Below are positions 13,516 to 46,804 of a stretch of 48,916 nt of DNA, piece by piece. The translations under genes were made by a program, and so were the position numbers. The notes beneath the pieces were generated by a model. The model was not told the DNA's origin. It made no database searches and was given only the letters and a program-made list of their open reading frames with translations. The stretch is from Girardia tigrina (Eukaryota), in contig MQRK01179932.1 in assembly GCA_001938485.1 (NCBI GenBank), forward strand, positions 1 to 48,916, in the 5' to 3' direction. Each line of letters begins with the position of its first letter. The stretch's first letter is position 1.

Positions 13516-13556
13516 CGTTTATTAATTTCGACGGTTTAACCGTCGTCGTCAGAACA
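13516..13556 (-). ncRNA. Minimal type-I hammerhead ribozyme (PLE-type)
   Basis: Minus strand: TGTT CTGACGA C GACGGT taa ACCGTC GAA ATTAAT A AACG. Intact core, perfect 6-bp stem II, palindromic stem III and a 3-4 bp stem I. Confidence 0.8.
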
Positions 13557-15391
13557 AATGATTTTTCAAACGAAATTTACTTATATAGTGCAGTTAATGA
13601 TTATGCAATCAATATGTAATAAGTATATCATTTAAAAACTCTCAACAAAGTTGTAGAGAGTGCAGTTTGAACGTTAATTTTAGGATCCAAAGATCTTATA
13701 TATAACGCTTCACATGTCACTCTCTCCCAATAGAGTATATATATATATATATATATATAAAATTTATTTATATATAGAATTTCCTATTTATATTTATATA
13801 TAGAAGAAAATTTAAATTAGAATTTACATTTTTCCATTTCTTATAACTTTATGAATTTTTGGTATTTTTTCTTTATAAAAATATTTTTGGACTTCTTACT
13901 AATTATTGTTTATTTGTTATGACATTGTGATGAAAAATGTATAAAAAAATTTACTTACTGCACTCGGGTTAGCAAACGCTCTCCAATTATTTTTCCCATA
14001 AAAACCAAATTTTCATGGTTTCTGACTCGGAAACTGCGTTCTGGAGTCCTGGTTATTCGAATCAGTGATTGTCGTAGTACTAATCAGTCAAATATCTACG
14101 ACTGGGACCTAATAGTACCTTGATCAAATAGATAATAGTAGAAAACTGTTGGAACATACGAAAAAACATACCAAAATATTCACCTTAATGTTGCTACTTC
14201 AACCGGCTCGATTAGACAATTCGTACAAGTGTTGGACCCGAAATCTCGACTTCGAATGAATTAAATTGTTGAAAAGTTCGATCTATTCAGTTTCAGACTT
14301 CAGAAATCGGTACAATTCCATCGATGATGAAACTTCATTTAAAATGGGACTCTGGTCAGCAAAACACCCGCAGAACTCTTTACAAGTAAAATCTTCATCG
14401 ATCTTTGTGATCTCCATAGTTTTCTACCCCAGAATCAATGACATTGTAAACGTTCTTTTTAGAAAGAATTTAATATTTACTTGTTTTTCATTATCTCGCG
14501 AAGCCTCTATAAATCTCTACTATTTCTTCATTTTCACTGAGTTAACTTGTTGTATTAATAACATATTTATTCGTCTTATTATATATATATATTTATTTTG
14601 CAGAATAAATGTTATTTACTAACATTCTAACGATTTTGTATCTTGTATTTAAATAATTATAATTTGTATAATTAGCTTTAACTGTGAATAAAATATAATT
14701 ATTTATACCAAAAAACTGAACTTAAAATTATGCTGATTGGAGAAAATTAAAAGTTTTAACAGAGAGCTTTTACATTTATTGAATTTTCATTTTAATAATC
14801 GTCCTCAAAAGAATATGGCCGGTATTTTCAAAACCATTTAATAACGAATTTGACTTTCAAGCAATTCAGTGAAAAAGACATTAAAGTCTCTAAAATCAGA
14901 ACAACAAAAGTATTAGAAAGAAGCCACCAGACATAATTGTTACATTTTGACAATTGTCGAAACAATCCTCAAATAATCAATGAAAAGAGTATTTGAATGT
15001 CGGCATTAAAAATAAAAAAGAAATTAAAAAAATTCAAAATCTCAAATGTATGATAATAATTTAGAATGAAAATTCATTCTTATGAAATATTGAAATTTTC
15101 CTTAATTTTCTTTTTAAAAATATTAAATATGACTTTATTTTTTGGTTTGTTTATTTTTTTCTAAAAAATGATTTCTTCAATAGAAGATTGTTTTTATTCT
15201 TCGATATCATTCTTCAAACGACCTTCTGAAAGTCAAAGTTAATTTTTATTTTTTATTAATCATTAACTTAATTTGTTATTCTTATTTAATATAAAAAATT
15301 TATAAGAAACCCAAAATCGATTTACTTTTTATATTATTAAATAAAAGATATATTATATCAATTTAACTTTCATTTTTTCAATGGTTTAATG

Positions 15392-15586
15392 CAGTGGTTT
15401 CCAACCTATGGGGCGCGAGACTGTTGCAGGGGGGCATGCAGATCTTTCCAAAATATCATTTTTGAATACAAACCAAAAAAATCGAATAGGTGTCACAAGA
15501 AATGAATGAACAATTTGTTTTTTAAATGGGGGTGCACCAATTTTTTTAAAAGGGGGGCGCCGGTACAAAAAAGTTGGAAACCACTG
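15392..15586. mobile_element. hAT (Charlie/Buster-like) MITE, 195 bp
   Basis: Perfect 14-bp TIRs CAGTGGTTTCCAAC / GTTGGAAACCACTG. The 8-bp TSD gtttaatg / gtttaatt matches at 7 of 8 positions. Confidence 0.9.
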
Positions 15587-18500
15587 GTTTAATTTATTAT
15601 ATTTCTATTATAAAATAGAATTAACGTGCAAATAATCAATTAAATGTAATTATTATCTTTAACTTATAATATTCAAATTTTATTTGACATAAAATCCGTT
15701 AAACTTTCTGATGATTTTTTGCCAAATGCTCATTTTATATTAAATTTAGGCATAATTTTTGCAGCATTTTCCGAAAACTTTTAAATGATTATTTTAGAGC
15801 ATATTTATTACTTAATCAAAGGTACTGTTTCCCATTTACTTGGTTTCCGGTCAGTTACACTAGCAAAGTTGTGTATTTTTTAGAAAATCTATTCTTTGAT
15901 TGCGATCTCCAAGTCATTAAAGTCATTGTAAACTTTGTTCACGAGCTAAATTATCAGTAAGCGATTGACATGATAGTCTTTGGCTCTTCTGAAGGAGAAA
16001 GTTGTGGTTGATGAAGTGATTCTCCATAACGATTGGTGATAGATTCACTGGAGAAATAGAAACACCTGGAGAAACGCAAGTCTTCTTTTTTTGACGTTAT
16101 TAAGGAGAAATCGCGATGCATCATATGTATCGAGATTATTCAGGTACCAAGTCTGTTCGTATCTCTGCTGCAAATAAGTAAAAATCCTTATTAATCTGAC
16201 TATCGTTTTTGGAGTGTTTATGTATGAATATTTTCCTTACTTTTCTCAGCTTTCGAGAGGACTAACAATTGTCAAATGGTCAACATTACAGACTTTTACT
16301 GGTACTATCGTTGTCAGCTTTTCGTTGTCTTCCACAATTGTCAAAAGTTCCGGTTTGTCGGTAATTAATAGGTGACATCTTGCTTCTTCATCTGTAAGGC
16401 TTGTTTTGCAAAAGTTTTATACTGATTACCAGTTGGTCTTAAACATTTACTTGATTTTTGATTTGCATTTTCCTATAAAAAATAATAAACAAAATCCAAA
16501 TTTTTAAGATAAAATTTAATTTTGAGTACCTTTTGAAAAAAGAAACATTCCCTGTACTGGTTACTATATCAATCCGAAACTAATTCTGTCAAGTAAGCAA
16601 TAGTGAGTTTTAATAATAATAATGTCAAAATTATTTAGAAAGGTAATAATATTATATCATCTAATTTAATAATTTTTAAAGATTTTTATCACCTTTTCAT
16701 TAAATGATTTTCACCTAACGTTATTTTTCACCTTTAAAAGTTTTCAATAGAAGAGATTAGATTGTACAAAAGTTTATTAGTCGTTGGACAAATACCAACA
16801 AATGGACAAAAATAATATTTTATCTAAAAATAATTGTTTTTTTTTCTTTATTGACATTAATTTATTGTGGAACGAAATACCAAAGCCGTCAACAAGATAT
16901 CTCATCTCCTTTCAGCACATTTCATTTGATTCTTCTTTCAACGGAAAAATGTTCCATAATTAATCACCGTTTTTGGCAATTCTTCATCAAGATTAGATAT
17001 TTTAGCCGGGCAAATCTGTGCTGTTAATTATTTGCTGTAGCATATTTGTAGAATGCAAAATTCCAGCATTATATTTTCTTAATTGTAAAAGAATAATTCA
17101 TTTTCATTGGAATTTCTCTTATCATATTAATAATAAAATAAATAAGTCAAGTTTTTCATATTATTTATTTACAATATGTTTAAAACAATTATTTTTGTTC
17201 CTTGAAAAACTGAAACTTTGTTGTACACTATTTGAAGGGCTTTTTTGTATTCTATAAACATAACCTCATGAGAGGCATCTCTCAATAACTGCGTTTCTGT
17301 ATGCAAGGTATTGCTTTTTAGGAGGTTCTGTTACATAATTTTAATAGAAAGAACTATTATCATTACTTTCTTTCGCTCGTAGTACAATTTGAATGAACTA
17401 ACTAAATCAGCTCTTGAAATTGCTCTATTTCGGCCTACTGTAATTTAAAGTTGGAAGAAAATATTATAATATTTAAAGCGCGTATGGTAGGAGATCCAAA
17501 CTTGTTATGAGCATTTGACACTTTAAGACTTTAGTATCCATATAAAACCCTTAAATGCTTCATTGAATAACGATGACAGTACTTGAGGCTACTCAATCCA
17601 GAAAACGTGTATTGATTCACAGATTTCGTAAAATAGTTATATCGTAATAGTCCAAATAGTAATAGTCCAAATTTAATCAATGTTAAAGTCATAAATCCCC
17701 TCCTTGAAAATGTATTGAATTCAACGGAATTCAAAAATATTATTGATAATATCATTTTTCAATAGTTTCTAGACATGTTTCCAGTCAATCTCAACATTTT
17801 TAACAGAATAATGTTACTTGCTCTTTCTTTGAACATTTACCTAACATGTAAATTCCACTAAGGTACTATCGCAATAAGACATCAACCTCTGAAAATTGAC
17901 TCATTGTGAAAGAACATGACTTAGTCGAAATTTTATAAATACATGCAATAGAAATCTTAATATCGGCTATATATGTTCAAATTTACTAAAGTCGATTTTT
18001 TTCGTGATTAGATGTCGTTCTCGTTACCAAAAGATAGTAAACAAAATGTTAGTTCATATTAATGTACATTTATTCTTATTATTATATATTTTGCGTTGCA
18101 ATATTAAATAAATGCTTAGGACAAATAAAGTTTCTTAAAAAAAGGTTTTTTCACGACTAAAAGTTTTGTTATGCAATCTTCGAAAGCATTTTGTAGTCGG
18201 AATCATTGGTAGTTGTAAGTAGCGCGTTTATGCCATTTTCATTATCAGATATTTCACAATTCATATTTATCGCTTAAATTTATTAATGATAATAATACAC
18301 ATATATAAACAAATATATATCGCCAAAATCATTCTTTTAAATCTTTCTTCTAATTCAATTTGTAAAATTTAATACATTTTAAAATTTAAATTAATAAATT
18401 TAATTTTTTAAATTATAACAATAAGCCTTTTATCTAAAAAATTATTTCTTAAAATATTATCAAGTTTTATCCTTTTATTATTAATTTTAAAATTCTTATT

Positions 18501-21311: not shown

Positions 21312-21350
21312 CTCAAAACATGTTTCGCCATTACGACATCATCAGTTGTG
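21312..21350 (-). ncRNA. Minimal type-I hammerhead ribozyme (PLE-type)
   Basis: Minus strand: CAA CTGATGA T GTCG taa TGGC GAA ACATGT T TTG. Intact core and ACATGT palindrome, with two G-U pairs in stem II. The downstream flank resembles that of the 25660 copy. Confidence 0.7.
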
Positions 21351-22960
21351 AAGTAAATTTCAAATTACAAGTCATTTATATGGCACATTGACTATTACAA
21401 TGTTTCAGAATTTCGTATTCAATCATCATCATTTATAATTTTGTATTTATTAATTTTATAAAAGTTAGTTTTAAGGGAATGATTTTTGGATTTATTTTAA
21501 TTATTTAAGATATTGGATAATAATAGAAAAATGTTTTAAAAGATGAAAACATTATTTTTCATATATATATATATATATATTAGAGACAAATATTTTAGTT
21601 AAACGTTTTGAAAATGTTTTGAAGTTTCATACTTTATCATCAGCAAATATAATTTGTAAAATATATAAATATTGTGTTTTTTATGTTATAATATTTAAAA
21701 ACGAAAAATTTTAAAATATATTATTTATTATTTCAAGAATTAATGGCAAATTTATTTCTTTATTTAATTAAGATTTTATATATTATTATATTAAAATTAA
21801 ATTTTTCACATAATTGAATCAAAAAAAATAATTAATTAACTATTTAAAAAGTATTTTAATAAGAATTTTTTCTCAGCAAAATTATTTCTTTTTGTGTAAT
21901 TTAATCATGAAGATAAATGATTTTTCGAGCTAAATCTTTCAGATAAAATCTTTGCTTCAAGAAAAGGAGTGATTTATTTGCAGTTTGAAGCGTGAGACTC
22001 CATTATTAAAATTGAGGATAAAACAGTCGAAATGGGTTATCAAAACATTCAATCATTCGAACGTTTCTTTCTTCCCATTTTATATTCGTGTTTATCGAAT
22101 TCTAAATCGTATAATTAATACCAAACAGTAATTATTTATTTGTTGTTTTTTCCTCCAATAATTTTTCGACATATGCTTCAATTACCGAGATAAGAATAAC
22201 AAAAAATAAATTTTCGCTGAAAATTGACAAAATATATTATCGATAAGCAATAAATTATTTTCTATTTACTTTTGTTTTTTGTAAAAAGAAAAATCAATAA
22301 AATCGGTTTTTTTGTCATTTTTGGTTGTTGGTTATTCTATTTTCGTTCGTGAAAAACGTCTGAAAGAAATACATATTATTTAATTATTATTATTATTATT
22401 ATTTATATTTTTAAAACATTTTCGTCAATATTACCGTAATTAATAAAGTATTGTTTCTTAAATTTAAATAATGATAACTAAAGTTTAACTTAAAATAAAA
22501 GTGAAAAATCTGATTTTTCGACACAAACAAATGTATTCCGTATTGTTGGTACTTCAACATTTTGAGTTGATCACAGTCCCGTTGGAACAGATTTGGGAAA
22601 TGGCTTTTTCTAGAAATTAGGCTCACTACAATACTCATTAAGTGGCCATATATGGCTTGATGACCACTTCTCTTTGAACGATGCATAAGTCATGGATACT
22701 CGAAAGAAAAATATAATTATTCGCATATAGTTCAATTATAAATATTTTAAGTATAAGAATTGAATAACAAAGTTTGCTATTACTTTATTAATAAATAAAA
22801 ATTTATGCATGTAATATTATAGACATAAAGGTAAAAGGTTGTGATCAATAATTTCTACAACTAGACAAACGAAACATTGATATAGAAGACATATTTATAT
22901 TCAATAATAATAATTAATAAAATATCATAATTCTCAATTTATCTTTCAGTGTTTTTCATA

Positions 22961-23337
22961 TATATTATTCTGCATATTTGCATATGTCTTTAAAGTAAAC
23001 CTCTTAACATAGTAACAATATTTTCAACTCACTAGTCTATAAACTTTGAAGAACATTATGATGTAGTTTNNNNNNNNNNNNNNNNNNNNNNNNNNNNNNN
23101 NNNNNNNNNNNNNNNNNNNTAAGAGTAGCTTCTGCCATGTCTACCAGCAAAAATAAAATTATGTAATTATAACACACAAAAAGATATGGTGTCTATATTA
23201 CGTGTTCTCAAATAGCTGCCGCACCCTGTATATTATTCTGCATATTTGCGTATGTCTTTAAAGTAAACCTCTTAACATAATAACAATATTTTCAACTCAC
23301 TAGTCGATAAACTTTGAAGAACATTATGATGTAGTTT
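22961..23337. repeat. 109-bp duplication (22961-23069 vs 23229-23337) flanking an N gap
   Basis: The copies differ at 3 positions. The second copy is preceded by a Tc1-like end (gcaccctg|TA). Confidence 0.85.
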
Positions 23338-25239
23338 AAAACCTTTAGGAGCCAAATACTTTCTAAATATGACCCATTCCATTTAGGATTTTTTGTTATT
23401 GTCTATGATGATGAATAATTCGAAGATTGTTATTCAATTAAAACTAACCGCCACAACTGAATACCGTAATAATGGGAAATGCATTTTTATTTTGTACAAC
23501 ATACAGTACAATATACGTTTTTAATAAGTAAATAAAGTTGTAATAAATGTCTCGTACGTGTACCAGTATTTTGTGACCGATGGAAATACAATCTTTTTTC
23601 TTGGAAAGAACGCAATGAAGATCAACATCGACCAATAGATGATTTTTTTATTCGACTTTAACAGTCGCAGAAGCGATAAGCCAACCGTGCACAAATATAT
23701 TGAGAGGGTGGCACGAAACGTCAATAGTTTATTTGGTTTCTTATATAATATCACTCTTATCCTATTGCTCTCAGAGACCCCTTGAAAAATGACTTTTAAA
23801 CCTACTGTTTGTTATTTAGATGAAACTTAAATTTTAAAGTAAAAAGTTAAAATGAATTTAGTTAATTTTAAGAAATGAAATCCATTATGAAAGTATCAGC
23901 TGTTTTAGTTCCATTTTGAGTCTATTGTTTGTTACGCTCGATTTATATGGAAGTGGACAATAGATGACAATATAATTTATATCAGATGTAAGGTCAAAGT
24001 CTCATAGAAAACGTTAAGTCTCTATTGGTTCACTATATGGCTGCCTTAATTAGACTATCCTACAAGTGTATATTTTTAATGGTAATTATACAATCTTTTA
24101 TATCCTCAATATACTGCAAGTTCTGCATCACAGGAAAAGTTGGCTGAACATGTAATCCTTCTTCACCTATTGTTGTCTCTGGGTATATTTTCTCAGTGTC
24201 TTTTGTTCTATAACAACGGAACTATTTCTAGATGATGGAGTTTATTGTGATGGGATAGGATGAAGTTTCATCTCGAAAACTAACTTCCGTGATAGTGATA
24301 TTACACTGTTTCCATCATGGTTGTAAGTGATAAATTATCTATTCCTACGGACGAACTGATCAAAGTACGAACAAACTTAGAATCCTTTAAATAAGTGGAT
24401 ATTTAATTATCGGGCATTTATCAATTTGAAAGGATAAGTAAAGACAAAAGTTATAAATTTTAAAAAAGTTAAAGAAATGTATTGTTTTTTAGGTCCAGGA
24501 GGACGAGACTAAAAGCATTTAGATAACGGATTTAGAGGTTAATACTCTTTAAAGATGAAATCGAAATAGCACTTTAGATATTATAACAATCATATATATT
24601 AAGATATTTAACAATGATTCCTGAGTTTTTATAGGGTAAATTATTTTAATTATTAATTGTTTGATTAAATTTATATTATTACAATATAACAAATCTGAAT
24701 TAAAAAAAGAAAAGTTGTATTTTTATTTTATCCCATAATTAGATAAACTTCAACCAAATGGTTCTTAATTTAATAACCTTTAGAAACAATCAAATGTTGA
24801 TAATGAATAATAAATCATTAAGTAAAATTGTAAAATATTAATTAATTAATTAAAACTGAAAATATTTTATGAATTTTGCTTGGAATAGAAATCGATTTTT
24901 ACCTTTATTTTCCTTTAGCTAATTTAGCATGTTTCTGTGATTGAAATTAATAAAATAAATAAATAAACTTTTGTCAAGAAAATCTGGTGACGGAAAATTC
25001 ATTAAAGCAACTGTGTTTTTCTTTATACCCAAGAAACAAAACAACCCAAAAATACCCAAGAAAAACAACAAAATTGATATCCGGGATTTTATAAATTATT
25101 ACTTGTAGAATTTAATATATTATTAAGGTCGATTTATAAAAAGATGTTCATCTCAATAGCTCGTACATGTATAATATAAGTAAGAAAGACAAATAAAGTC
25201 ATTTCAATTTTTAATTTTTATTCGAAAATATGCATCACC

Positions 25240-25780
25240 ATTTTTAAAAATTTCAATTATTTTTCAAATAAATCCAAAACATAATTGACTATGAAAGCAA
25301 ATTTAATTTACCAATATAAATGTGACAAATGTGAATCCTTGTACATTGCATAGACAAATAGTCAGCTCCGTATTAAAATTGCAGAACATAAATAATCAAT
25401 CAGGAAAAGCTAAATTTTGAATAACATTGTGAGATGTCCTGGAACTCACTGGAAGGTACCATGATATTGATTTTCAGGTTTTGATTAGTAACTTTGGTCA
25501 CAATTATGAAAGGACAATTACTGAAGCATTGTTATTAAAGTTTTATAAATCTGGTTTTACGTGCAAATTGATTCGTCCTATCGTGCTAAATTATTTGAAT
25601 GTAACGCGTTGTGACGTAATGGTCATCTTAATATATAAATAATTTCATTTTACTTATTTAAAAAACTGATGATGCCGCAAAAGTGGCGAAACATGTTTTT
25701 GAATAAAATTTTAAAATTGAAATGTCTTTATTTTTTTCTTTATTAACTAATTTACCATTTACTACTCAACCATTAATGTA
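25240..25780 (+). mobile_element. Penelope-like element 3' end (GIY-YIG endonuclease remnant plus pLTR with HHR)
   Basis: From 25291: MKANLIYQYKCDKCESLYIA*TNSQLRIKIAEHK, then FQVLISNFGHNYERTITEALLLK. An HHR follows. Confidence 0.85.
25660..25705 (+). ncRNA. Minimal type-I hammerhead ribozyme (PLE-type)
   Basis: AAA CTGATGA T GCCGC aaaa GTGGC GAA ACATGT T TTT, lying ~60-100 bp after the GIY-YIG remnant. Confidence 0.75.
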
Positions 25781-28700
25781 AATAAGTAACAATAAGTTAC
25801 AAATATTAAAAACCAAGAGATTCTGAATATGTTTAGAGATCCATGAAATCGTGATATCATTTTTTACAAAATTTAATTTTAATCTATTATTAGTTAATTT
25901 AATACATATAAGTTTTTAAAGCCTTCAAACTTTCAAATTAAATTTCATTACCCCACTTCACGAATGACGAAATGAGTCTTGTTATCATGATGCTGCATTG
26001 AAGAATTAGAATTTTCAATCATATCAACACAAATTTTTATTTTCAAGAAAAATGTATTAGTATCACAAATACAAATTATGCAATAAAATTAAAAACGAAA
26101 TTTTTTTAAAAAATGTCATTTCGAAAATTTTCTGAGAAAACATTTTATTTTTATGTATATAAATATTTATTATAAGAGTTTGTTTATTTAAATATCTTTT
26201 TTTTTAATTTATTTAATTTAATTGTCTTAAAATTTCTATGAAACGTTTTTAATATTAAAGTTCATTGTATACATGAAAAATTTTAATTTCATTTAAATCC
26301 CTAACAGGTTCAAAGTGAAATCCCAATGATCAAAAATATTTAAATTTAGTTATAAATGTAAATATTTTAATTAAAAACTCAAAGAATCTTTACACCTTAA
26401 GTTCTCAAATTTTACTCAAATTCGTCTTTAAGAATCTTGGAATTCTCAGAATGAAAACTTTTTAAGAACATTATATCTAATTTGTATATAAATATTTATG
26501 CTAACAATCATATATTAAATAATAATTCAAAAATTAATAAAGTTATAATTTGGTTCATATCTGATTTACATAATATAATATATAAATATTCACAAGGTTT
26601 TATAAGAGAAAGTTTTATATTTATTTCGGTAACGTTATGGTAACCTTTACATATTATTAAGTAAGACCTAAATGATGGAATGTCTCTTGGAATGTCTCAT
26701 TCAGATTCAGTTATACAGAATCTTTCAATAATCTCATAGTGTAATTTGATAAATTTTAAATGAGAGAAACATTTTGCTAATAAAAACGGAATTATATACA
26801 TTTTACTACATAAATTTTGTAACTATTAAAGGTAAATTTAAAATTAGGTTATTAGCTGATCTGTAATGATGAACTATAAAATATTGTGAAGTATTGGGAT
26901 TTTGTGTGGTATAAATCGGATTATCCGATTCGGACAATACGTTTTTTAGATGTATTTGAATGTCCAAATTATTTTTGTGATTACTGAAATCATCATTGTT
27001 TTTTTGTTCTGAATTCTTTTTCTTTCTTTGGAATGAATAATTCAGGTAGTTGAACTTATATGATTCGCTTTTAATAATCTGTTTTTTATTTTTCTTTAAA
27101 TTAATTATGTGAAGAAATAAATTATTAAAAATAAAGAAAAATAAATAAAATCTTTGATCTGTAAAACTGATGAACAAATATCATTTTCTACAACTTTTTG
27201 GGGGTATTTAACCCTATGTCAGCACAGTAGAAATATGTAACAATGATAATATTGTTGGATCTAGAAGACCCATAGAAATCTTCTTAATTTTGATATTTAA
27301 AAGAAATTAGTAGGGGTGACTGTCAGCTCCACTTACTGAGTCGTGTGACAACTTGGTACAAAAATCTTAAGAAATACGCTATTTCAAAATGGCGCGGGTC
27401 AAATAGCCCCAACTGTACGATCCCCCGATTAAATAGTTTTGATTGTGGAATTGTATAAGCAACATTTGTTTGATCTTCATCTGATCTGATAATGGCGGTT
27501 AAACTATCGGAATTAATAATCAGTAATAAATATTTTAATAATCCTGATAAATTTGATTTGTTAATATAATCTTTTTTTAGACAAAAGAAAAAAACAGAAA
27601 ATTATTTTAAATGTTAAATTAAATTCAATGATTTATTTTATTATTATATTACATGAAAAAGCGAATTTATTTCCAAAATAAGTATTGTAATAATTGTAAA
27701 CGATTTGTCTTGGCGATACGAATTAATATGAGATTGATGATTATAAACCAATTTGGTTGGAATACATCGAAATTGGAATTTAATCTTTATTTCACAGATG
27801 AATTTCTTTTGATAGTAAAATAGAATAAAATAAGCTCGTTAAACCGATTTTCAATTATTATTTTAATCTTAAACTTTTAGATAAATTTATTCGTTTTCAA
27901 TTATGAAAATTTTTTATGACTTTTGATGAGAGTTTTCATTTTCTTTTAGACTTTTTAAGCCAAATAACAACAAAAAACGTTAAAAAGTTATTATTTTTTT
28001 ATCAACAATTGGATTATTGTGAATGGGTTCGGTTTTTGTTTTCTATTTTATTTTGATTTAAAAAGGAAAATATTACAAATATTTTTAATTTTAAAAGTAC
28101 TTTTCCATTATTTTGATTATTATAATAGCTTTATTAGAAAAATAATAATAAAAATAAATGTGTCCCTCAAACATGTTATTCCAGGCTAAACCTTTTTTGA
28201 TTCCATCCGGGACCACCCGAAATATTATTTTATATTTATAACCATTATTTTATTTGATCTATTTACAGTGTATTGAATTAAATAATTTTAATAATTTATT
28301 TATATTTTATTAACAATATTATTGAATCATTAGAAATTTTAATTATATTAATATCAGAAATTAGTAATCATAAAATATTAAATTCTGGTTAATTCAAAAT
28401 TTTCGGAATTTTTCGATATTGTATTACATGGTTGTTTATAAAAATCTATCTATTAATATAAACACAAAACGATGAATCAATTATTAATAAATTATATTTT
28501 ATTGTTTTTCAAAATTTTTTAAAAACAATGAGTCTTCATTTTGTAAAAAAATATATAAATAATTTAGTAATATTGTGACAATGCTATTTAATTCTTCATA
28601 CATTTTCATATGAATTATTTTAATTAACGTTGATGAACAAATATAAAAAGTAGATTTTTTATAATTTAGATTTATTTGGCTGGGCGCGGTTTTTATTGCG

Positions 28701-30791: not shown

Positions 30792-30835
30792 TATTGGACA
30801 AGTTTCGATGCTTACATACATCATCATCAGCAATA
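30792..30835 (-). ncRNA. Minimal type-I hammerhead ribozyme (left arm of foldback)
   Basis: Minus strand: TATTG CTGATGA T GATG tatgtaag CATC GAA ACTTGT C CAATA. Perfect 5-bp stem I, 4-bp stem II and a GUC cleavage triplet. The stem III palindrome has one change. Confidence 0.8.
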
Positions 30836-31209
30836 TTTGAAGATTTAGTATTTTAATATTTGTATAGTTCAATATTTTAATTGTTCTTAATAATATGATT
30901 TTAAAAGGTATATTAAGTTTAAATGGAATAATTTAAAAAATATATTATAATTTATTAAAGTATTATTAATTATTAATTTTTAATAATAACATTACTCGAT
31001 CGACTCATTTGCGAGTGCTCACTAATCCGGGTTTTGAGATGACGATTTGTCTCTCCGATGTACGAGTTTAATAATAATTTAATAATACTTCAATAAATTA
31101 TAATATATTTTTTAAATTATTCCATTTAAACTTATACTTTTTAAAATCATATTATTAAGAGCAATTAAAATATTGAACTATACAAATATTAAAATACTAA
31201 ATTTCCAAA

Positions 31210-31253
31210 TATTACTGATGATGATGTATGTAATCATTGAAACATGTCCAATA
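31210..31253 (+). ncRNA. Minimal type-I hammerhead ribozyme (right arm of foldback)
   Basis: TATTA CTGATGA T GATG tatgtaat CATT GAA ACATGT C CAATA. Intact core and palindrome with a GUC triplet, but an A:C mismatch at the base of stem I. Confidence 0.75.
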
Positions 31254-32001
31254 ATTTTATAAAAAAGCTTTAATCAAATTATATTTTCTATATATATATA
31301 ACTTATTAGAATTGAATTAATCACATATAGATTATTAAGAGGTTTCTTACGTTTTATCAGTATTATTAAAAACTTATAGTAAATTTAGAAGAAACTCATT
31401 CTCAAGATAAAACAATATTTAGGCGCGAGAGAATTTTTAAAATGATTTACATAAATTTTTAATATTTCCTTTTTAAGTAAACGCTGATCATCATTGTTTA
31501 ATTTAAATGTAAATAATTAATTTTTCTAGACTTATACTATTATTTTCAATTTTCGGAACGAATAGGAAAAAAATGACAAGAAAATAGGAAAAACTTCAAA
31601 CTTTGTTGTATAAAATGTTATTGAAAGAAATTACAAGTAAAAATTAAAAACTTCATATCAAAATAGATTATATAAATGATTTATTGTTTCAATTCAAAAA
31701 CTTATCGAATTGTATAACATTATATTTCTTTATTCTTCTGAGGAATTATAAAATTCCTCTGGATATTTTCTGTGATATTTAATTTTTACCGTTTAGGGAA
31801 TCAAACAAAAAAACTAAATTAATTGAAAATTTAACATATATCAGGAGCTTGATCTGATCGGGAATAAATATAGATCACTGATCCTCAAATGTATTAGAAA
31901 ACTTCAAACTTTAATAATTTTTTAAAAGCATTGCTTTTGGGCATTAAATTTGATCGAGATATATTAGAAATTGATCTTATATATTACTTTCCTAATTAAT
32001 G

Positions 32002-32039: not shown

Positions 32040-32099
32040 AATGTATATATATACAAATTTTAAGTCTCTGAAACCATTGATTTTTTTATATTAAATTCA

Positions 32100-33790
32100 T
32101 TTCTGGATAAGAAAAACTTAATAATTTTAAGATTGATAAAGGAACTTAACAAAAAGTTTAGAAATCAACTATTAATAAGAAAAGTTTCAGAACACCAAAT
32201 TCTTTAGCAATTTAATTCGATTAGAATGGTAGGTTTGGATCTAAAATATTATTACTGTTAAGCAATGCCTGATGTTTATCATTATCATCAAATTATAGAA
32301 CGTTACTAATTGCTAACACTTAAGAATATAAATATTGCCATTATAATTTCAATTATAAACATTTAATAAAGTGGTTGCAAATTAGATTGAAAATTGATGT
32401 TCTAAGGTTACTGGGCTCTATAAATTATGATTCAAATGATACTCTTTTAATTATTTCACCGCGCAGAACATTTAGATTAGAATATGAAGGAACCACGAAA
32501 ACCAACCAATTCGAAATTTTATTCTGGTAAGTTAACCTGAAGAACATATTAAAAAAAAAGAAACCAATATGAAAAGAGTAATTTTCACATTCTCAATTTT
32601 AGACATGAATATCATGAATTTCACAAACATGAATTTTTAGACGTTGCAAAAATTAAAAAAAATTGATTAACTAAACCGTCTAACAGTAACACATTTAGGC
32701 CGGATGTCATCAATATAATCTACATGGCATTTATACTCTAGAGGTTTCTTGTCCGGAAACAAATGGAATTTTTCTTCAATATTTCTATCAAGTATAAACG
32801 CTAGCATAAAAACGCTATGTTGATAACATTTTTTCTTTTAAATCATAGGAATATAGATCATTTTTTAAGATTCTTAATTTCTCGGTACCAAGTATTAAAT
32901 TTACAACAGAAACAGAGAATAATAATAAATTATCTTTTTTAGATTTACTAATAGAAAAGAAAAGAAATAATTATGACACCAAGATTCACAGAAAGAAAAC
33001 TGATAAAGGGTTGTATACATTTATAGTATGATTATAGGGTTAACTTATCGACCTTAGTCATTAGCATTAACTTTTTCAAAATTTTTTTGGTTATATTAAT
33101 CGATTTACAAAATTATTGAATACAATGGTTACTAAAAATCAATTATTGAATAATTGACTAAAGAAACAATCGATAAATTAATCAATAAATGATATAAAAG
33201 AACCACCTATTTTAAAATACGTTTTGAGTATTTCAAATTTTCAAGGTTTTGGTTAATTTACACGTTCAATTTCGAAATTTGTAAATACTATTTTTAATTT
33301 ACAAATAAGATTGCAACATTCAAAATCCAAAATGTATTTTATAAAAAATCTCCTACCCACTGTAGTATTGTTTTTGGATCTTGTTTATCGATTTACATGA
33401 AATTCAACATATATTCGAGAGACATCTGATCATCTATTTAGCAGATTCAAAGAACATGCCGTAATGTTGGTGAAGTACTATCACAGAACACATAAAAGTT
33501 TTGGAATTGAATGAAAATATTAGCATAAATAATTTTAAAATTCTGGTTGCTCAGTTTAATAATTATTGGGAGAGAGTGACCTGTAAAGTACTATGTATCA
33601 GATCTTTAGATTACAAGATTAATGTGCAAACGGGTCTCTCGACAACCTAATTGAGTGTATTTAGATGATTCATTGGCTACATAATCACTGCTTGCCTACA
33701 TAAGCAAATTTAAAATTCATAATTTCTTTATGGCCTGTCAATGACAGTTATACTGTTGAAATTAATAGTCTGTAATAATATTTTTTATTT
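32100..33790 (+). mobile_element. Longest Penelope-like element remnant (RT + GIY-YIG + decayed HHR)
   Basis: Motifs in order: KIDKG (~32130); KRYVDNIF (~32810-32833, YVDD site); PSIKFTTETENNNKLSFLDLLIEKKRNNYDTKIHRKKTDKGLY (32888-33016); LVYRFT*NSTYIRETSDHLFSRFKEH (~33380-33457); NFKILVAQFNNYWERVTCKVLCIR. HHR relic at 33732-33770. Confidence 0.85.
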
Positions 33791-35759
33791 TAATGGCATC
33801 TTATTGTTTTCAAAAAAATGCCATTATTTTTTAATTATTTGAATAATTAATATTTTATTATATTATTAATGTTACTGAGATGCATATAACGATTACACAT
33901 CATCTGATATTTTATGGTAGTTCCTCTGAATATGAGATTTATGAGTTTAAAAATAATATTTTAAAAGCTAAAAAGGCATAATTACATATAATGAATATTT
34001 CAGTGAGTAAAATCGATGAAATATTGACCAGTTACTGTTACTTCTATAAATTTTGTTAGAATATTATTTAGGAATATAGATGAAATGACTGCGAGGCTAC
34101 AGACTCATTATACATAAGCGAGTCTAAGAATATAATAAAAATATTGTAAGCCATTTAGTTACAATTTATTAATTGATGTATTTTAATTTATTTGATTAAA
34201 TAAATTAGTAAAGAATTACCTTATTTATAAATAGGTTATTAGACATTTTCAAGGATATAAAATTAATGTTTGTTTTGTCAAAATTAGTTATCTTTAAATA
34301 AATTTTAAAAGAACTTTCAAATTTTCATTTTTATATTTTAACATTTTTTTAAAATATTAATATTTATTTACTTTTATTCTTAAAATTAAGTACACCAGGA
34401 AATAATTTATTAAATCTCTTATAACATAATTATCTTACTATAAATGGAAAGAGAACAATTAACTTAAATTATTAATTTTATTTTTCTTTTTATATAAAGA
34501 ATTTGTAAAATAATCAGTAAAATTGGAAGTCAAATAAATAAATCAAAAAATTGAGAGATTTGGGGATATTTTATTGGAGTTAAAGTTTTATGATAATAAT
34601 AATTACCAATTACAATAACGAATTTAGATAAATTAAAATCTTTGATATGGAAACTTTGGATGATATCTAATGTTCCTAAAGAGGGTTGACTACATTTAAA
34701 AATCGGGAAAAAAATTATATTAAAAAATACCAACCCTATTTGGTTAAAGGAATTTCTGAATGCGCTGCTGAATTAATTACACAATGATTATATAATCATT
34801 ATAATCTGTCAAGTACTTCATTATGATTGGGTGAATCACTTTGCGCATTCAAACAAATTTTCTAAAATAATCGTACCTATATTTTATTTAATTAATTTCA
34901 TACTTCCATTTTAAACAAATTCTTCAATTTCTTCCTTTTTGAAGTATCGTTAATAAATACACAATTAAAAAACATTTTTTTCGATAATTGAATCAAGTAA
35001 CATTTTTATTATCAAATGCAATCGGATTTGTTTATCTTCGTCTTGTTTGTTTATACTTTGACAGCACTGTTAAAATCCAAATGCCAAATATCAACTTTAA
35101 ATGAAAGTGTCAATTTTGTTGTTTGAAACAGAAAAATGTCAGTATAAAAGTATTTAAAAGCATTTCAATAAATATCATTCAATGCTTTAATAACAACAGT
35201 CAATGTTTTTTTATTTTTCTTGAAATTTTTTACAAGAAATTTTGATATAATTTTAAATGGATTCAGTTGAAAGAACTTCAAAGGTATTTTAGAAATGGTA
35301 TATAAAATATAAATGTCATTTAATAGCAATTAATTTTTCAATTTTCTAATTAAACATATTCGATTAATCAGAAATTTTATCGCAATTTCAATATTTAGAC
35401 AAATTATAAAATAAAAAGAATTAATTTCAAATTTTAGAATGAATTAATAAATAAATGATTTATTTTTTGATTATTTTTTCAATATTAAATAATTTAAAAC
35501 ATTTTATTAAAAATAGTGTTTTAAATTTCATGCTAAAAAGGTCAAAGCTAAATTATTAATTAAATAAAATAATATTAAAGTGAAAAAAGAATATAGTATT
35601 AGAAAAATTGATATTCATAAATGAAATAAATTCGTTCAGAGGAACAATGATAGAGAGTAACGTTAGGCTATGTAAGATAAAATCCATCATGACGAGACCA
35701 AGAGGAAAGGTAATGGGGAAGCATGTTGAGATTGTAAAGAAACATAATTTATAAGAATA

Positions 35760-36110
35760 TCGATCATTTCAGAATTGTCCTTGACATCTAAAATGAGACT
35801 TCCTTATAGTTTAATTAAAATACCATCTACAGAAGAAAAGCTTGTTTTGTTTACAAATTGTGACTGGTGTCCAAACTCGTACGATGGAGAGAACAAATGC
35901 CATTTCAAAACAAGAATTAGTGAACATTCACATTCTAGTAGATTGAATAAGATTGTAGATCACTGAGTCAATTTCGAAAGACGACTTTTCTATTCTTCAA
36001 ACGACTTTTGATTATAATTATGATAGGTTGTATTATGAATCATTAATACTTAGTCATATATTATCCGAAAATAAGGAATTTTAATCAGCCTCAAGATTAA
36101 ATATTTTTAA
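35760..36110 (+). mobile_element. Penelope-like GIY-YIG endonuclease remnant
   Basis: ORF 35775-35966 contains CDWCPNSYDGENKCHFKTRISEHSHSSR, clearly related to the foldback core at 30988-31068. Confidence 0.7.
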
Positions 36111-37909
36111 TTATTTTTTTATTTATTATTTTTATCATCAAATAAAATCAAATTAAAGTGTAATTTTGTATTTCCCTATTTACTCGAATTTTAATGCTCG
36201 TTCAAATTTTGTGGTTCAAATCTGCTCAGAAAAGGTTTGCATATTTATTTATTAGTCTTGGATCCTAGGGACTTGTAATACTCAATTTCTACCGTTGTGA
36301 TCATCTTAAAGTGGCTTTTATTAAGAATTTTATGTTATTTATCGCATTTTATTCCATCTTTTTATGTTAAGACTTATTAGAATAATTATGATAAAAAAGT
36401 TTTTTCTAAGTACTGTTGTTTGAACAACAATATTTTGATCTTAGATTTTTTCTTTTAAAGATTTTTTATCCGTTGAAAGTAAATAATATTAAGACTTTCT
36501 AAGATATTATCATATAAAATTATTATTTTTTCCAAAATTTTCAGTAAAAATAGTTTAAATGTTTCTGAAAATTTTAAACATATAAAACCATATTTTGATT
36601 ATATATATATAATTATATTAACTTTGAAAATTGTCTAAATTGGTTTTAATTTAACAATATTTGTATCGAAATTCATTAAAATAACATATTAAAAACATTA
36701 TTTACCTCAAAAATTCAAGGAATAATTCTATTTTTTGTTTTTTTCTATTTAATTATCAAAGGTTTTTTATAAAACTGTTGTATTAATTGTTTCCAAGCGA
36801 CGAATAATAATCATAATATTCATATTCATAATAGTCGTAAATAGTATTTCTTATACGAATTATTTTCTTTCATTTGTTAAATTTTTGAAAAAAAATATTT
36901 CAAAAAATAAAATATATTCACTTTTCTAATTTTAACTCAAATATACTCAGTATAAAATCTCATCAAGATTTTAATAATCTCATTATTTATTTATTTATTT
37001 TAATTTAACGAAAATTGATATTTTAAAGGGAAATTAACAAAAAAAAAATCTTTATAAATATTTTAAAGTTTTTTAAAAAAAATGGTTTTATTGATAAAAT
37101 AATTTCTAAAATATGAGTTAATTTTTATAATATAAATTAATAATTAATATATTAATTAATAATTAATATTTATGTTTTGTTTGAATATTTTTAAGTTTAA
37201 TATTTCAAAGAAACATTTTAATATTTTTTTCAGTTTGTTTTGTTTATTTTAAGAGTTTTAATATTTATAAATATATAATATGATCTTTGATATTTAGTTA
37301 ACTTTTGAATACAATCTGCTTGAGAAAGTATTTGAAATTTATAATTTTTGTTAATAAAATCTGTCTATTTTGTCTATCTGCTTGTCTGAATGTTCGCGTA
37401 GAAAATAGACTCATCTTTGTTATTAACGAAGAATATTACTGTTATTTGTATATAAAGTTAGAATACAAATAGGCTATAGAAAAACGAAAGAAGTAAATTA
37501 AAATGCCTCGGTGTTAATGAAAACTAAAATGGCTTCTTTAATAAAACAAAGGGACCCAATTAAATACCTATTTTCATGCTTACTCATGTTTGGGATAAGG
37601 TTTCGAAAGCCAACTTGTAACTTATCAGATATATTTTTTATCTAATCCTAAATATGTTTGATATAAAATTAAATAAATGATTAGATTAATATGACTAACG
37701 TAATGTACTTTCAACCTTTTTTATCTAACAAGATACGTTATTCATACATTCTCTTTAATCATTTTACTAATGTTTAATGCTGTTCGGAGAAACCTTTGCG
37801 TTGGTAATGACATCGAATTATTAATTTATTTTTATTTTTAAAGTACTTTTATCATTGTATTTATGTAAAATGTATTCGTAAAATAAATTAATTGTTTCAT
37901 GTTTTCCAG

Positions 37910-38490
37910 ACGAGAGTCGTTACAAGATTCTCAACCAAAACTCAGCAGCTATGGATAAGCTTATTCCAAGATATCTAAGGAGTGCATCCGTAGATATGAA
38001 TGGATCTTTGCATTTATCAATGCCAAATAGTGAAGTGATTAATCCCACACCGACAACCACCACAATGAGCTATACTTATGACTCTAATTTTCAAAACTAC
38101 AATAATAGATTTAAACAAATAAATATGTCTGGTAGTCAAATGAGATCTCCAGAAAAGTTTTCGAAACTCAACAAACTTATTAAATCTGGAGAACTGGTTG
38201 ATTTTTCACCAGATGACGAAAGCCAGAAACGAGGCTTTTTGAATGGAGACCCAATTCAATCTTTGGATTCAATCAAACGAGTCGTTAAATCTCCTATTAT
38301 GTTCCAAACTGTAGAGGAAAATGTCGGAGACACTCACCAAACAGAGTCCGATTCACTTCATGCGAAATTCGGAAACACCAGCGTCCTAGACATTGTGTCT
38401 GGATCCTCGACCAACACGTCTTTGAACGATATGAAAAACAACAATGCCACCAGTAATCAGACAAACGACCGGATGTGTAGCCAAGTGTAA
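37910..38490 (+). CDS. Terminal host coding exon; disordered S/T/N-rich tail ending RMCSQV (class I PDZ-binding-type motif)
   Basis: gttttccag acceptor at 37908-37909, phase 1. The frame is stop-free for ~193 codons with elevated GC (ORF track 37951-38490) and shows no TE motifs. Confidence 0.8.
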
Positions 38491-38679
38491 ATAATTGTCT
38501 TCCTCGGTTACCATTATAAAACAAAATGTTGTCTGTAGATATATCAATCACATTTTCTATGTTTCTTCTGATTTTTACTACAGTTTGGAAATTAATGTGG
38601 TTTGATCGAATTATCTTTGTTCTATTTACGATTCCTTATTATATAACCTATTTTTGTTATTTTTTTCTTTTCATTTCTA

Positions 38680-40060: not shown

Positions 40061-40131
40061 GTATGATGCAGCCTTGAAGCTATATAATCTCAGCATGAAA
40101 TCCAAGCAGTCAACACCCACTTTGTGTTTGT

Positions 40132-40860
40132 TTTACTGGCGGAAAATTTAATGATTTTTGCAGGAAATATGGAATCGAACAAAGATTTAGTAGCCAATTT
40201 CAACATCAATCAAACGGGTTGACAGAAAGAACTATTCGAACAGTGAGATACATGATACTAACAAGCAGAGGAGACCCAGACAAACGATCATGGTGGAAAA
40301 TTGTTCTGAAGATAGAATTCTGTCTAAATGCAACAGTTCAGAATACGACCGGATATTCGCCCTTCGAAGTTGTGTTTGGTAGAAAAATAAACTTACATTC
40401 GGCAGCAGGAATAGCTAAAACGGAAGAGAGCAACGTGATCAAGATGAAGGTAAATGATGGAAAATTTGGAGAGAGAGAAGAGAACAAATTGACATTTCGA
40501 GGATGGTCAGAAAGTTTTGTAAAACAAGATCCTACAAAACTGAGAAAGGTCACTTTCCCATTCGATGGACCGTACCAAATTTTAAGACATATATCGCCAC
40601 ACCAATTGGAACTACAGAATTTGAAAGATGGAAACATAATTCGTCGAAGAATTGAGTGGATTAAGAAAATAAATAACGAATTATAAAAGAGGGGAAAGTT
40701 GTGATTATTATTTGTTTAAGTATTCTAAAAAGATTGTAAATAATTAATAAATTCTACTTGTTGTTATTATGAATCTTAAGTGAAACCTGGAGATTTAACT
40801 AAGAAGAAAGGGATTGTTTGTGATTTTGAGATACGGATAGTTTCAAAAATGTATTCAAAA
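40132..40860 (+). mobile_element. Ty3/gypsy integrase 3' half with PPT and start of the 3' LTR
   Basis: FTGGKFNDFCRKYGIEQRFSSQFQHQSNGLTERTIRT...TTGYSPFEVVFGR...FDGPYQI. The polypurine tract aaaagaggggaaag (40685-40698) is followed by TGT at 40700. The LTR end is not determined. Confidence 0.85.
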
Positions 40861-40899
40861 AATATTTTTGTAAAAACATACTGTAAAATGACATACTCT

Positions 40900-42640: not shown

Positions 42641-43005
42641 AATATGATCTGTTGTTGCTTGAATAAGTACAAAGAAAATAAATGCTTGTAGAATTGGGGT
42701 TGGCTTTGATATTGTTATTTTAAGGATTTGAGATTATGTCTTGAGCTCCAAATCACAGGAAGTCAAGATTAGTATTCTTAAAATAATTCTTAATATTGAT
42801 TTTTAATTTGAATTTCCATTAGTAATATTAATTTGTTAATGGAATTTTTTTAATTTTAAATTTTATTTCGCGTGTCCTTAAAATAAACAAGAATAGATGA
42901 AATGAACGTGAAAAAAAATAAAAAGTAGAAATGAAGTGACGACAAAATTTAATTAGATTACGGGCACTACATTATTTAAAAAAAAACAAAAAACTAAAAT
43001 CATTA

Positions 43006-43334
43006 CCGGGATTTTCTGAAAATAAGCGCATTCAAAAATAGGCACATGCTCCTATTTTTGGGGACAAAAACCTGATTTTTTGCTTCCATTTGAATTGATC
43101 AAAAAATTATTGTAGTGGTTTCAACCTCTATGAAAACCACAACAATTATTTTTTAATTAATTCAACTATTACGAATTTTTAGCTGTTTTTAGCACTTTTA
43201 CACTTGCTGCACGTGAGGTAAAAATGGCAGTTTCCTAAAATAAGCACTTGCGCCTATTTTTGGGAACAAAGTGGAACACATAAAAACATAAAAACTAAAT
43301 ACAAGCTCATGCGCTTATTTACGGAAAATCCCGG
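43006..43334. mobile_element. Tc1/mariner-pogo type MITE, 329 bp
   Basis: TA|CCGGGATTTTCTGAAAATAAGCGCAT...ATGCGCTTATTTACGGAAAATCCCGG|TA: ~26-bp TIRs and a TA TSD. It has an internal hairpin (~43090-43165) and subterminal repeats. Confidence 0.85.
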
Positions 43335-44145
43335 TAACTATTAAAAAATTAAAAAAAACTGTGCATAAAAAATTGTATATAAAGATTTTATTTAAACAGA
43401 GTAAATGAACAGAGTAAATTGAACAAAGACTGTAAACCAAACTTGTTGTTCTTCAATAAAAAAATCTTAAAACACTCGATTTCTTTTTTTTGATTTAGAT
43501 AAATTTCATCCATCTTTTCATTACCGAAGCAAAGCAGTCGACTTTTGATCAAAAAAAATCGACTATCATGTCGGTTACAATTACGCCCGAAACGGATCAG
43601 GTTAAACGCTTACGCCTATTACTTGATTCACTCCACCAGTCATGTGTTGGCATCAATACATACTTTTTATAAAACAAGTCAGATAAATTTGTAAGACAAT
43701 GACATTCCACTATACATTTGTCATAACAATAAATAATTTTTCAGTAACTATAATTAACATTTTTGATCCATCTAAGTGTGCACTATGGAGTGCATCTCTT
43801 GAACTATCCCTTTAGTTGTTTTTAATTTTCTTGTGTTGAAGCAGTGACATTTTAACTTTAGATTCTTTTGTATACTAATACTTTATTTGTAGTTTTGATT
43901 AGCAAACATCAAAAATTTTAATATTTAAATATTAAACATCGAAAACCGCATACATTTTACATAAGATAAAAAATTATATTTAGATAGACATCAAGAAATC
44001 CACTCAACAAAACATAAAGAAGAGGGTAATGGAAAATAAGCAAGTCACGGTATTGCAAAATCATCTTTTATTGTTCTTATTTTCATTAGTAATATATTTA
44101 AACTGAAATATGTCCCATTGACGTTTGGTTTAGACGTCGGTCTAC

Positions 44146-44753
44146 ATAGTGGTTGGACAAAGATGAAGTACCGAAACACTTTCCAAAACCGAAACTAACA
44201 CCCCGTAAGGTTATGGTGACAGTTTGGTGGTGTGATGCTGGAATCATCCACTATAGTTTCTTGANNNNAGGTGAAACAATCACAGCGGAGAGGTACTGTC
44301 ATGAAATTGATGAAATGCATAAGAAATTGAAAACCCTTTGTCCGGGATTGGTCAATCGAAAAAGTCACATCCTTCTTCATGATAACGCCAGACCTCATAT
44401 TTCAAAAGTGACTCTTCAAAAGCTTAATGAGTTGGGCTATGAAACCCTGCCTTATCCACCATATTCACCAGACCTCTCGCCAACGGACTTCTACTTTTTC
44501 AGGCATTTGTACAACTTCCTATGTGAAAAAATTTTCAAAAACCAAAATGATGCTCAAAATGCCTTCCAGGAATTCGTCGTTTCGAGAACCGATGCATTTT
44601 ATGCTGATGGAATAAAACAACTTGCTTCTCGTTGGCAAAAAAATGTATTGATGCCAACGGTTCATACTTTGATTAATAAACTTTTGTTTCTGTGAATTTG
44701 CATGTCTTTGAAGTTTGTGTCCCAAAACCGCCATTATTTTTCGACCAACCTAA
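44146..44753 (+). mobile_element. mariner transposase 3' half with right TIR (cecropia/Hsmar1-like), 5'-truncated
   Basis: KVMVTVWW...LLHDNARPH...PPYSPDLSPTDFYFF. A +1 frameshift in the A run at ~44637-44643 precedes CIDANGSYFD*. The TIR is aaaaccgccattatttttcgaccaacctaa|TA. Confidence 0.95.
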
Positions 44754-45756: not shown

Positions 45757-45835
45757 GGACTGGGTCCAGGGGGCGCCATAATATCTCGGCGCCCTGTGCC
45801 AAGGCACAGTTGACGCAATGGATAATCCAGCCCTA
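45757..45835. mobile_element. Single end of a probable hAT-type non-autonomous element
   Basis: GC-rich ggcgccctgtgccaaggcacagttgacgcaatggataatccagcccta resembles the reverse complement of CAGGGCCGGATTA-type termini. No partner end was found. Confidence 0.4.
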
Positions 45836-46107
45836 GCACTCTCAACTAATTTGTTAAAAGTTTTCGATTATACTTACATAAGTAATTACACAATCATTAA
45901 TTTTTATATAAAAGCAATAATAAAGAACATAATCAGTGATCTTATGATCACGGTTAAACCGTTTTACCGAATTCAAGAGATGAAAACTAATTACAGCCTA
46001 AAAAATGTTTAAAATATAATTTATAAAACAAAAGATACACCATTTCAAGATATTTTTTTGATATTATCTTTCGATGGTTTCATTTATAAATAAACTGATT
46101 TTTAGCT

Positions 46108-46185
46108 TATATATATATATATATATATATATATANNNNNNNNNNNNNNNNNNNNNNNNNNNNNNNNNNNNNNNNNNNNNNNNNN

Positions 46186-46233
<48 letters not shown>
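46108..46233. repeat. (AT)n microsatellite spanning an N gap
   Basis: Direct observation. Confidence 0.95.
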
Positions 46234-46240
<7 letters not shown>

Positions 46241-46762
46241 GATGATTATGTAATCTATTTCTTGTCGGAAACTCTTAACAAACTAGAAGACACTCGTCAT
46301 ATATGATGGGTGAACTGAATTTTCGTCTTTGAAAGTTTTTACTTTAATTTTTAAATCGTAATTATTATAATTTATTGTATAATGTTTCGAATTCTGTATT
46401 GATTTAACAGTCAGTCAATTAAGTTGGCTCCCGGAGCCTTTCGGCGAAGGCGCCGTACAGACAGAACCGTCGTGATGCGGGCTATGCAGATTGACCTCAA
46501 CTTTACGGGATTCACTCCCTGTTCCTCCACTATTTCGCATTAATAAGGGTCACTAGACCTTATTAACAAAGCTTCACACGGCTCTTTCCCAAAAATTTTT
46601 AAAATGCCTGGAATGAATTTTAAAAGCATTTATACTCAAATCACATTTCCAAGTTTTCCTATGCTCAACAATATTACTCTTACCCCTCTATAAGTGTATT
46701 CTTGGAGTCCTTTACAGAGATGACGGTCAGTCTCTCCAATGTAATCAAAAAGCTAACGATCA

Positions 46763-46804
46763 GTGATCGGAAGATGACGTAAAACCGTCAAAACATATTA
46801 TCAC
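46763..46804 (+). ncRNA. Decayed minimal hammerhead ribozyme motif
   Basis: GTGAT CGGAAGA T GACG taaaac CGTC AAA ACATAT T ATCAC. Stems I and II are perfect, but the core carries U4G and G12A changes and the palindrome is mutated. Confidence 0.5.

Follow-up and report, generated by a model that had tools for sequence, protein, structure and literature searches.

The stretch of DNA analysed here, contig MQRK01179932.1 of the Girardia tigrina assembly GCA_001938485.1 (48,916 nucleotides; the window), has a G+C content of 25% and contains (TA)n runs with assembly gaps as well as many transposon remnants. Its 49 kb hold ten solid and two weak sites of minimal hammerhead ribozymes (min-HHRs) and eight remnants of Penelope-like elements (PLEs), the latter located by tblastn and by a hidden Markov model (HMM). 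These features are collected in Table 1. An initial annotation had named eight of the hammerhead sites, all of which are present, the positions given for them marking the low end of stem I to within 3 nt. It had described five as near-intact; five full cores do exist, but only those at 13520-, 21317- and 25666+ are free of deviations, the site at 30792- reading ACTTGT in its palindrome and that at 31210+ being mismatched in the basal pair of stem I. The three or more decayed sites of which it spoke are likewise found at 21608-, 33732+ and 46763+, although the first reads ACATTT and the last ACATAT in place of a proper palindrome. The list was incomplete, having overlooked 27486-27518+, 6643-6670- and the weak sites at 46063-46090- and about 4507-4540-.

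Table 1. Hammerhead motifs and Penelope-like element remnants in the window, in order of position
Feature	Span	Core (C3 to H17)	Strand	Remarks
F, weak remnant	about 4507-4540		-	ATAGAT; H17 = U; C/D-like; found by alignment
PLE linker remnant	4733-4995		-	F lies downstream; tblastn/HMM
A0	6640..6673	6643-6670	-	decayed; CCATGT; outside 13516..46804
PLE linker + GIY-YIG remnant	6726..7326		-	ends 56 nt before A0; contains the query frame 6922-7194-
C1	13516..13556	13520-13552	-	0 deviations; ATTAAT; H17 = A; stem I 4 bp, stem II 6 bp
PLE GIY-YIG C-terminal remnant	13631..13783		-	tblastn E 1.8e-12, HMM; 79 nt before C1; 5'-truncated in (TA)n
A2	21314..21348	21317-21345	-	0 deviations; ACATGT; H17 = U; near (TA)n
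E	21607..21647	21611-21643	-	decayed; ACATTT; B-like as judged by eye
PLE linker + GIY-YIG remnant	25087..25596		+	tblastn E 2e-22, HMM E 5e-23; stops, frameshifts; 70 nt before A1
A1	25663..25700	25666-25697	+	0 deviations; ACATGT; H17 = U
C3	27481..27523	27486-27518	+	decayed; ATTAAT; H17 = A; stem I 5 bp
B-	30792..30835	30797-30830	-	intact stems; ACTTGT in place of a palindrome; H17 = C
PLE GIY-YIG fragment at the inversion junction of element B	30985..31068		-	Pfam GIY-YIG E 8.9e-4 (below curated cut-off); HMM E 1.9e-10
Inverted 5'-truncated copy of element B, holding B+	31080..31288		+	matches B- at 198 of 208 aligned bases; ends in (TA)n
B+	31210-31253	31215-31248	+	ACATGT; mismatch at stem I base
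PLE RT C-terminus + linker + GIY-YIG remnant	32807..33662		+	tblastn E 1.4e-18, HMM; many stops; 73 nt before C2
C2	33732..33770	33735-33767	+	decayed; ATTAAT; H17 = A
PLE linker + GIY-YIG remnant, lineage B-related	35714-36111		+	tblastn/HMM; no recognisable hammerhead downstream
D2, weak remnant	46063..46090		-	AGATAA; at 3' end of element D, past (TA)n/N gap; found by alignment
PLE GIY-YIG remnant of element D	46474..46746		-	tblastn E 1.2e-8
D1	46763..46804	46768-46799	+	decayed; ACATAT; H17 = U; stem II C-like

The significance of these matches was judged against dinucleotide shuffles built per 1-kb block. A descriptor that requires CUGANGA, 4 or more bp in stem II and GAA finds five matches, against a shuffle mean of 0.265 and a maximum of 3 in 400 shuffles, and all five carry A....U-H although the descriptor did not demand it. 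With a perfect 6-nt palindrome and H added, four matches remain in the window and none in 400 shuffles. The probability of a perfect palindrome in four of the five from composition alone is 9e-8 assuming independence, an assumption that is not fully true. In a graded version, tolerance of 0, 1, 2 and 3 deviations yields 3, 4, 5 and 9 matches, respectively, where the shuffles average 0, 0, 0.007 and 0.11. The nine comprise five full CUGANGA-GAA cores and another four with up to three deviations. The shuffle comparison had been named beforehand, and since none of 150 shuffles reaches the observed count, the contention that the motifs are not due to chance is borne out. The probability that AT-rich DNA has simply thrown up these motifs is thus negligible, the more so because they occupy a fixed position behind PLE endonuclease remnants (see below). 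What speaks for chance concerns the margin of the set: loosened to four deviations, the descriptor finds 1.3 matches in each shuffle, and the two weak sites are each non-significant by themselves in a covariance model. This model, built from ten motifs, recovers just those ten at E < 0.09 and adds no site; F scores only E 2.1 and D2 is unrecovered. We conclude that chance is refuted for the nine descriptor matches and A0, but not for F and D2. An Rfam scan of the window returned no hammerhead match at E up to 5, its only matches being three low-scoring miRNA-like hairpins.

Stems I and II had been said to differ between families and yet to pair, and an alignment of ten motifs agrees: 89% of the cells pair, compared with 62.5% in shuffles and 27-50% when the partners are slid. 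Both sides have changed in nine of the 11 pairs (stem I, 4/4; stem II, 3/4), these figures being inflated because the motifs were selected for pairing and are partly related. The unpaired base between A9 and 10.1 is present in each of the five full cores, while the 10.1-11.1 pair is G-C in seven of the ten motifs, G-U in two and broken in one. The common architecture that had been proposed for the sites equals the consensus published for PLE min-HHRs, CUGANGAH-stem II-GAAAN-palindrome-NU-H (PMC4209133; statements on published systems refer to the cited sections of the papers). Stem III, described as too short to fold in cis, indeed does not form there; in all nine folded motifs, the probability of the A15.1-U16.1 pair in cis is at most 0.0004.

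The attribution of the motifs to PLEs, which had also been suggested, is upheld by the coding remnants. An open reading frame (ORF) at 6922-7194-, used as a query, retrieved 35 proteins (P0001-P0035) at E <= 0.001; a word-indexed protein search with the same ORF gave no match. Among 14 relatives that were scanned for domains, RVT_1 was found in seven and GIY-YIG in two. P0002 has both, the reverse transcriptase (RT) domain preceding GIY-YIG, and inspection by eye revealed no Zn-finger linker of the Neptune/Nematis type in this protein. With 34 of the 35 retrieved proteins, used as tblastn queries and as an HMM, the eight remnants were located. In the one at 32807-33662+, the end of the RT through to the endonuclease is matched in order. 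When 24 short stretches without stops next to the motifs were searched with Pfam, the only match was one to GIY-YIG, below the cut-off. A same-strand motif lies downstream of seven of the eight remnants, in five cases a clear motif and in two a weak one, and in the four remnants with a mappable end the distance from coding end to motif core is 56-79 nt. Viewed from the 12 sites, seven are downstream of a same-strand PLE remnant, two are in adjoining inverted copies and three have no coding remnant. No tandem array covers any motif core in the window. The motifs lie at a median distance of 327 nt from (TA)n, compared with 1342 nt for random points (p 0.004, in a post hoc test).

Rather than eight independent families, the sites represent about four PLE lineages, those at 30792- and 31210+ being opposite arms of a single inverted duplication. 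Lineage A (6643-, 21317- and 25666+) and lineage B (30797-, 31215+ and probably 21611-) have the palindrome ACATGT, and lineage C (13520-, 27486+ and 33735+) has ATTAAT. In lineage A, A2 resembles A1 (74% over 101 nt) and the A0 region, 6625-7069, is homologous to 25245-25715 (67%); C2 similarly resembles C1 (69% over 216 nt). The remaining D/F group combines C-like stems and H17 = U with the palindromes ACATAT (D1), AGATAA (D2) and ATAGAT (F), and the flank of D2 matches that of D1 at 81%. In a tree of the endonuclease built from 26 of the 34 library proteins and eight window fragments, seven of them less than half filled, A, B and C fall in separate supported groups; D is not placed, and the tree does not settle the relation of A to B. 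Of the two palindrome classes that had been announced, both exist and they cannot pair with one another, only 3 of 6 pairs being possible and no mixed duplex forming; the homoduplex energies are -4.6 kcal/mol for ACAUGU and -0.2 kcal/mol for AUUAAU. Two classes are probably too few, as the three decayed D/F copies point to a likely third, most simply ATATAT, although the ACATAT of D1 is also a single change from ACATGT.

In elements B and D, a short inverted copy adjoins the 5' end and holds a second motif (B+ and D1, respectively). The two motifs of each element are thus on opposite strands, and a cis dimer of B- and B+ was rejected for this reason. B- continues for about 35-40 nt where B+ has already ended, like the 30-40 bp tail that PLEs have at one end, and this stretch is shared with 47342-47408. 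The latter, on the minus strand, represents the 3' end of a family-B element standing by itself (91% identical to 30714-30780); it has the tail absent from B+ and ends in (TA)n, and no hammerhead is left in it.

Overall, the motifs are very probably minimal type I hammerheads in the 3' untranslated region or pseudo-long terminal repeat (pLTR) of endonuclease-bearing PLEs, surviving in 5'-truncated, decaying insertions of about four lineages. We identify them in this way because of the enrichment over shuffles, the covariation, the position behind the remnants, the PLE homology, the inverted copies and the published consensus. In an active parent, the transcript would be that of a partial tandem (pLTR-ORF-pLTR) and would contain two identical motifs. 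Their palindromes would pair to form a shared 6-bp helix III, and each stem I 5' arm would pair with the 3' arm of the other copy. Cleavage, expected after H17, would be weak and probably aided by the element's protein, dimer cleavage and protein help both being taken from the published work. Since palindrome and stem I would need to be compatible only with themselves, each lineage could drift by compensatory change. Palindromes of the form A-N-N-N'-N'-U number 16, and lineages can be expected to share one through descent or by chance. We infer that no copy in the window now works in cis.

Several observations weigh against this identification. PLE protein and HMM searches detect no coding remnant at A2, E or C3, and conversely the PLE remnant at 35714-36111+ has no motif. 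There is no full-length element in the window, where the copies are all truncated remnants and the pLTR-ORF-pLTR tandem is not seen, and the endonuclease tree contains no named PLE references. Lastly, the intact A1 lies next to an ORF that has four stops in 94 codons plus frameshifts (25087-25700+); under a rough, assumed AT-biased neutral model the joint probability of this is at most 0.0055, or about 0.05 allowing for 8-12 sites. The sequence upstream of the orphan C3, at 27200-27480, is more GC-rich and without a PLE protein match, and a 92-residue stop-free frame is present at 27323-27601-.

The state of A1 raises the question of whether the ribozyme has outlived the ORF, A1 and A2 having spread as non-autonomous, retrozyme-like derivatives or having been kept by selection. 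A2, too, is intact with no coding remnant found, and a 2026 preprint derives animal retrozymes from PLE pLTRs (10.64898/2026.07.22.740005). The calculation for A1, however, depends on an assumed mutation model and on a site picked after the fact, and is marginal once corrected; tandem units are lacking in the window, and the B pair speaks for neutral decay. In the latter, 4 of 44 positions differ in the motif and 6 of 164 in the flanks (Fisher p 0.22), so the motif is not better conserved, and each arm carries lesions of its own as neutral decay predicts. Non-autonomous spread would explain the intact A1, and we regard it as a weak lead; both it and selection are unlikely.

The initial annotation had gone on to propose that the palindrome could be a compatibility code, such that active heterodimers would be open to unrelated PLE families with a palindrome in common. 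In its favour, A and B belong to separate endonuclease clades, as judged from short fragments, and yet share ACATGT with its -4.6 kcal/mol duplex; ACAUGU and AUUAAU fail to pair; and A2 and E are located on one strand, where E is 266 nt upstream and (TA)n lies between them. By our reasoning from the established topology of the hammerhead, however, stem I must form between the partners. When the two palindromes of a dimer pair, A15.1 of one unit is opposite U16.1 of the other; the partner that gives U16.1 and H17 also gives the 3' strand of stem I, and both helices must therefore be cross-complementary. By the same reasoning, a matching palindrome is necessary, but not sufficient, for an active dimer.

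Only base pairs in stem I were counted, since junction free energies cannot be compared between partners that form this stem and partners that do not. Each of the nine motifs tested forms 3-5 bp with itself. A and B/E are the only distinct lineages with a common palindrome, and across them stem I amounts to 0 bp in six and 1 bp in six of the 12 ordered pairs, a count that omits B+, whose own stem I base is broken. Stem I reaches 3 bp in only four of the 26 ordered cross pairs with the same palindrome, each of them within one lineage; in the ATTAAT class it does so in one of six. Heterodimers would therefore be blocked by stems I that differ between families. The cis heterodimer of A2 and E was rejected on this ground, its two stems I having 0 and 1 bp, and the region containing both motifs folds no better than shuffles (z 0.21). 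Moreover, ACGU recurs in 29 of the 56 motifs in print, in different animal phyla (PMC4209133), and the palindrome alone thus discriminates poorly. The literature surveyed, which did not include Lunse et al. or Forster et al. (1988), yielded no heterodimer or compatibility code, and absence from print is accordingly not established. We conclude that the palindrome can exclude relatives but does not admit strangers, and that active heterodimers between unrelated families are very improbable.

A different role for the palindrome is suggested by C3 and D1, whose stems I cross-pair by 4 bp in both directions and whose stems II are similar but whose palindromes differ, with 3 of 6 pairs possible. 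Palindrome and stem I could together constitute a selected self/non-self address, a switch of palindrome insulating sister subfamilies from mutual cutting. Co-resident PLE lineages might then avoid cross-cutting by altering either part, C3 and D1 exemplifying the insulating switch, while trans cleavage might occur among relatives that are compatible (C3 on C2, B on E), dead copies acting on live ones. The D1, D2 and F motifs with H17 = U, which suggest the third palindrome class, fit such a scheme. Against it, four competent cross pairs are observed where permutation of the palindrome labels gives 2.5; there is no deficit, in a comparison of nine motifs with little power, and selection for exclusion is thus not shown. 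Drift under self-complementarity predicts the same pattern, and the original palindrome of D1 is uncertain, given its nearness to ACATGT. We consider both the selected address and the avoidance of cross-cutting through it unlikely, and prefer the self-compatible drift described above. The motifs do provide a natural panel in which the two variables are separated, A x B having the same palindrome with incompatible stems I and C3 x D1 compatible stems I with different palindromes. Were exclusion truly selected, retrotransposons would possess a self/non-self system that operates at the RNA level. The matter bears on why PLEs keep weak, dimer-only ribozymes that are so variable within a genome (PMC4209133, PMC8557442, PMC11167929).

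The window contains a variety of other features. A decayed Tc1/mariner-like DNA transposon occupies 8787-10204, with DDE_3 at 9610-9927+ (E 6e-9) between the inverted repeats 8787-8875 and 10116-10204 (76%), and a Mariner-type transposase remnant is present at 44150-44695+ (Pfam Transposase_1, E 2e-21). A hairpin and short inverted repeats are found at 43003-43337. Remnants resembling long terminal repeat (LTR) retrotransposons lie at 40099-40686+, with weak integrase and SH3 matches, and at 47411-48644+, with a weak aspartyl protease match and RVT_1 at E 7e-11. Two stop-free frames rich in S, N and P, at 4004-4330+ (108 residues) and 37882-38490+ (202 residues), are possible host-gene exons; neither has a Pfam, homologue or usable Atlas match, and a word-indexed protein search with 37882-38487+ was empty. 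If both frames belonged to one plus-strand gene, the plus-strand motifs would be intronic and in the sense orientation. Direct duplications flank 50-N gaps at 1-647 (91% over 299 nt) and 22961-23337 (97% over 109 nt) and are probably assembly artefacts. The end of the window, 48650-48916, is an AT-rich tandem repeat with units of about 10-11 bp and a 139-bp higher-order period.

Comparison with published systems places the motifs in a class that is already known. Cervera and de la Pena (2014) defined the min-HHRs of metazoan PLEs as low-activity dimers with palindromic 15.2-16.2 and loop 3, and described many covarying families per genome, mostly as single copies at truncated PLEs (PMC4209133). 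The window motifs share with these the type I fold, CUGANGA followed by one unpaired base, G10.1-C11.1, GAAA-palindrome-U-H and a short stem I, as well as their occurrence in variable families, as single copies at truncated PLEs and with several palindromes per species (PMC4209133). The last of these is documented for S. mansoni (ACGU and AGCU), Nematostella (ACGU and AUAU) and Adineta (ACUAGU and AGCU), so that the presence of several palindromes in one genome is also known (PMC4209133). In Fig. S3 of that paper, by our count by eye of machine-read text, ACGU accounts for 29 of the 56 rows and 6-nt palindromes for nine (AUAUAU, ACUAGU, AGCGCU and AGAUCU); ACAUGU and AUUAAU are missing from these 56 rows (PMC4209133). 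What the window adds are further examples of a described class, with two 6-nt palindromes absent from the published list with which we compared them. The density, 10-12 sites in 49 kb, is also high in relation to the PLE min-HHRs described in the cited sections. Opposite-strand pairs have likewise been reported, with a spacing of 100-700 bp, one wasp element having a second min-HHR on the opposite strand (PMC4209133, Fig. S4A legend), and inverted 5' copies are described for PLEs generally (PMC8557442). Reports of PLEs that carry a GIY-YIG endonuclease at the C-terminus come almost exclusively from animals (PMC8557442).

The dimer model is backed by a review that cites Lunse, Weinberg and Breaker (RNA Biol 14:1499). 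Judged from title and citation, the hammerheads of that work resemble the window motifs in being linked to PLEs, in having a palindromic stem III of only a few base pairs and in acting as dimers (PMC6765202); the work may already contain the present palindromes or assays of mismatched partners. A further parallel is the Poseidon element of Anolis (PAc), a PLE with RT and GIY-YIG and a hammerhead in its pLTR (PMC11167929). Cleavage has been demonstrated in PAc; it depends on the protein of the element and is not a prerequisite for insertion in vitro (PMC11167929). Non-LTR retrozymes resemble the motifs described here in that their hammerheads are of type I, occur in AT-rich repeats of animals and in some cases act as dimers, but they form tandem units of 150-450 bp with mostly canonical hammerheads, unlike the single, minimal and PLE-attached motifs of the window (PMC7229834; 10.64898/2026.07.22.740005).

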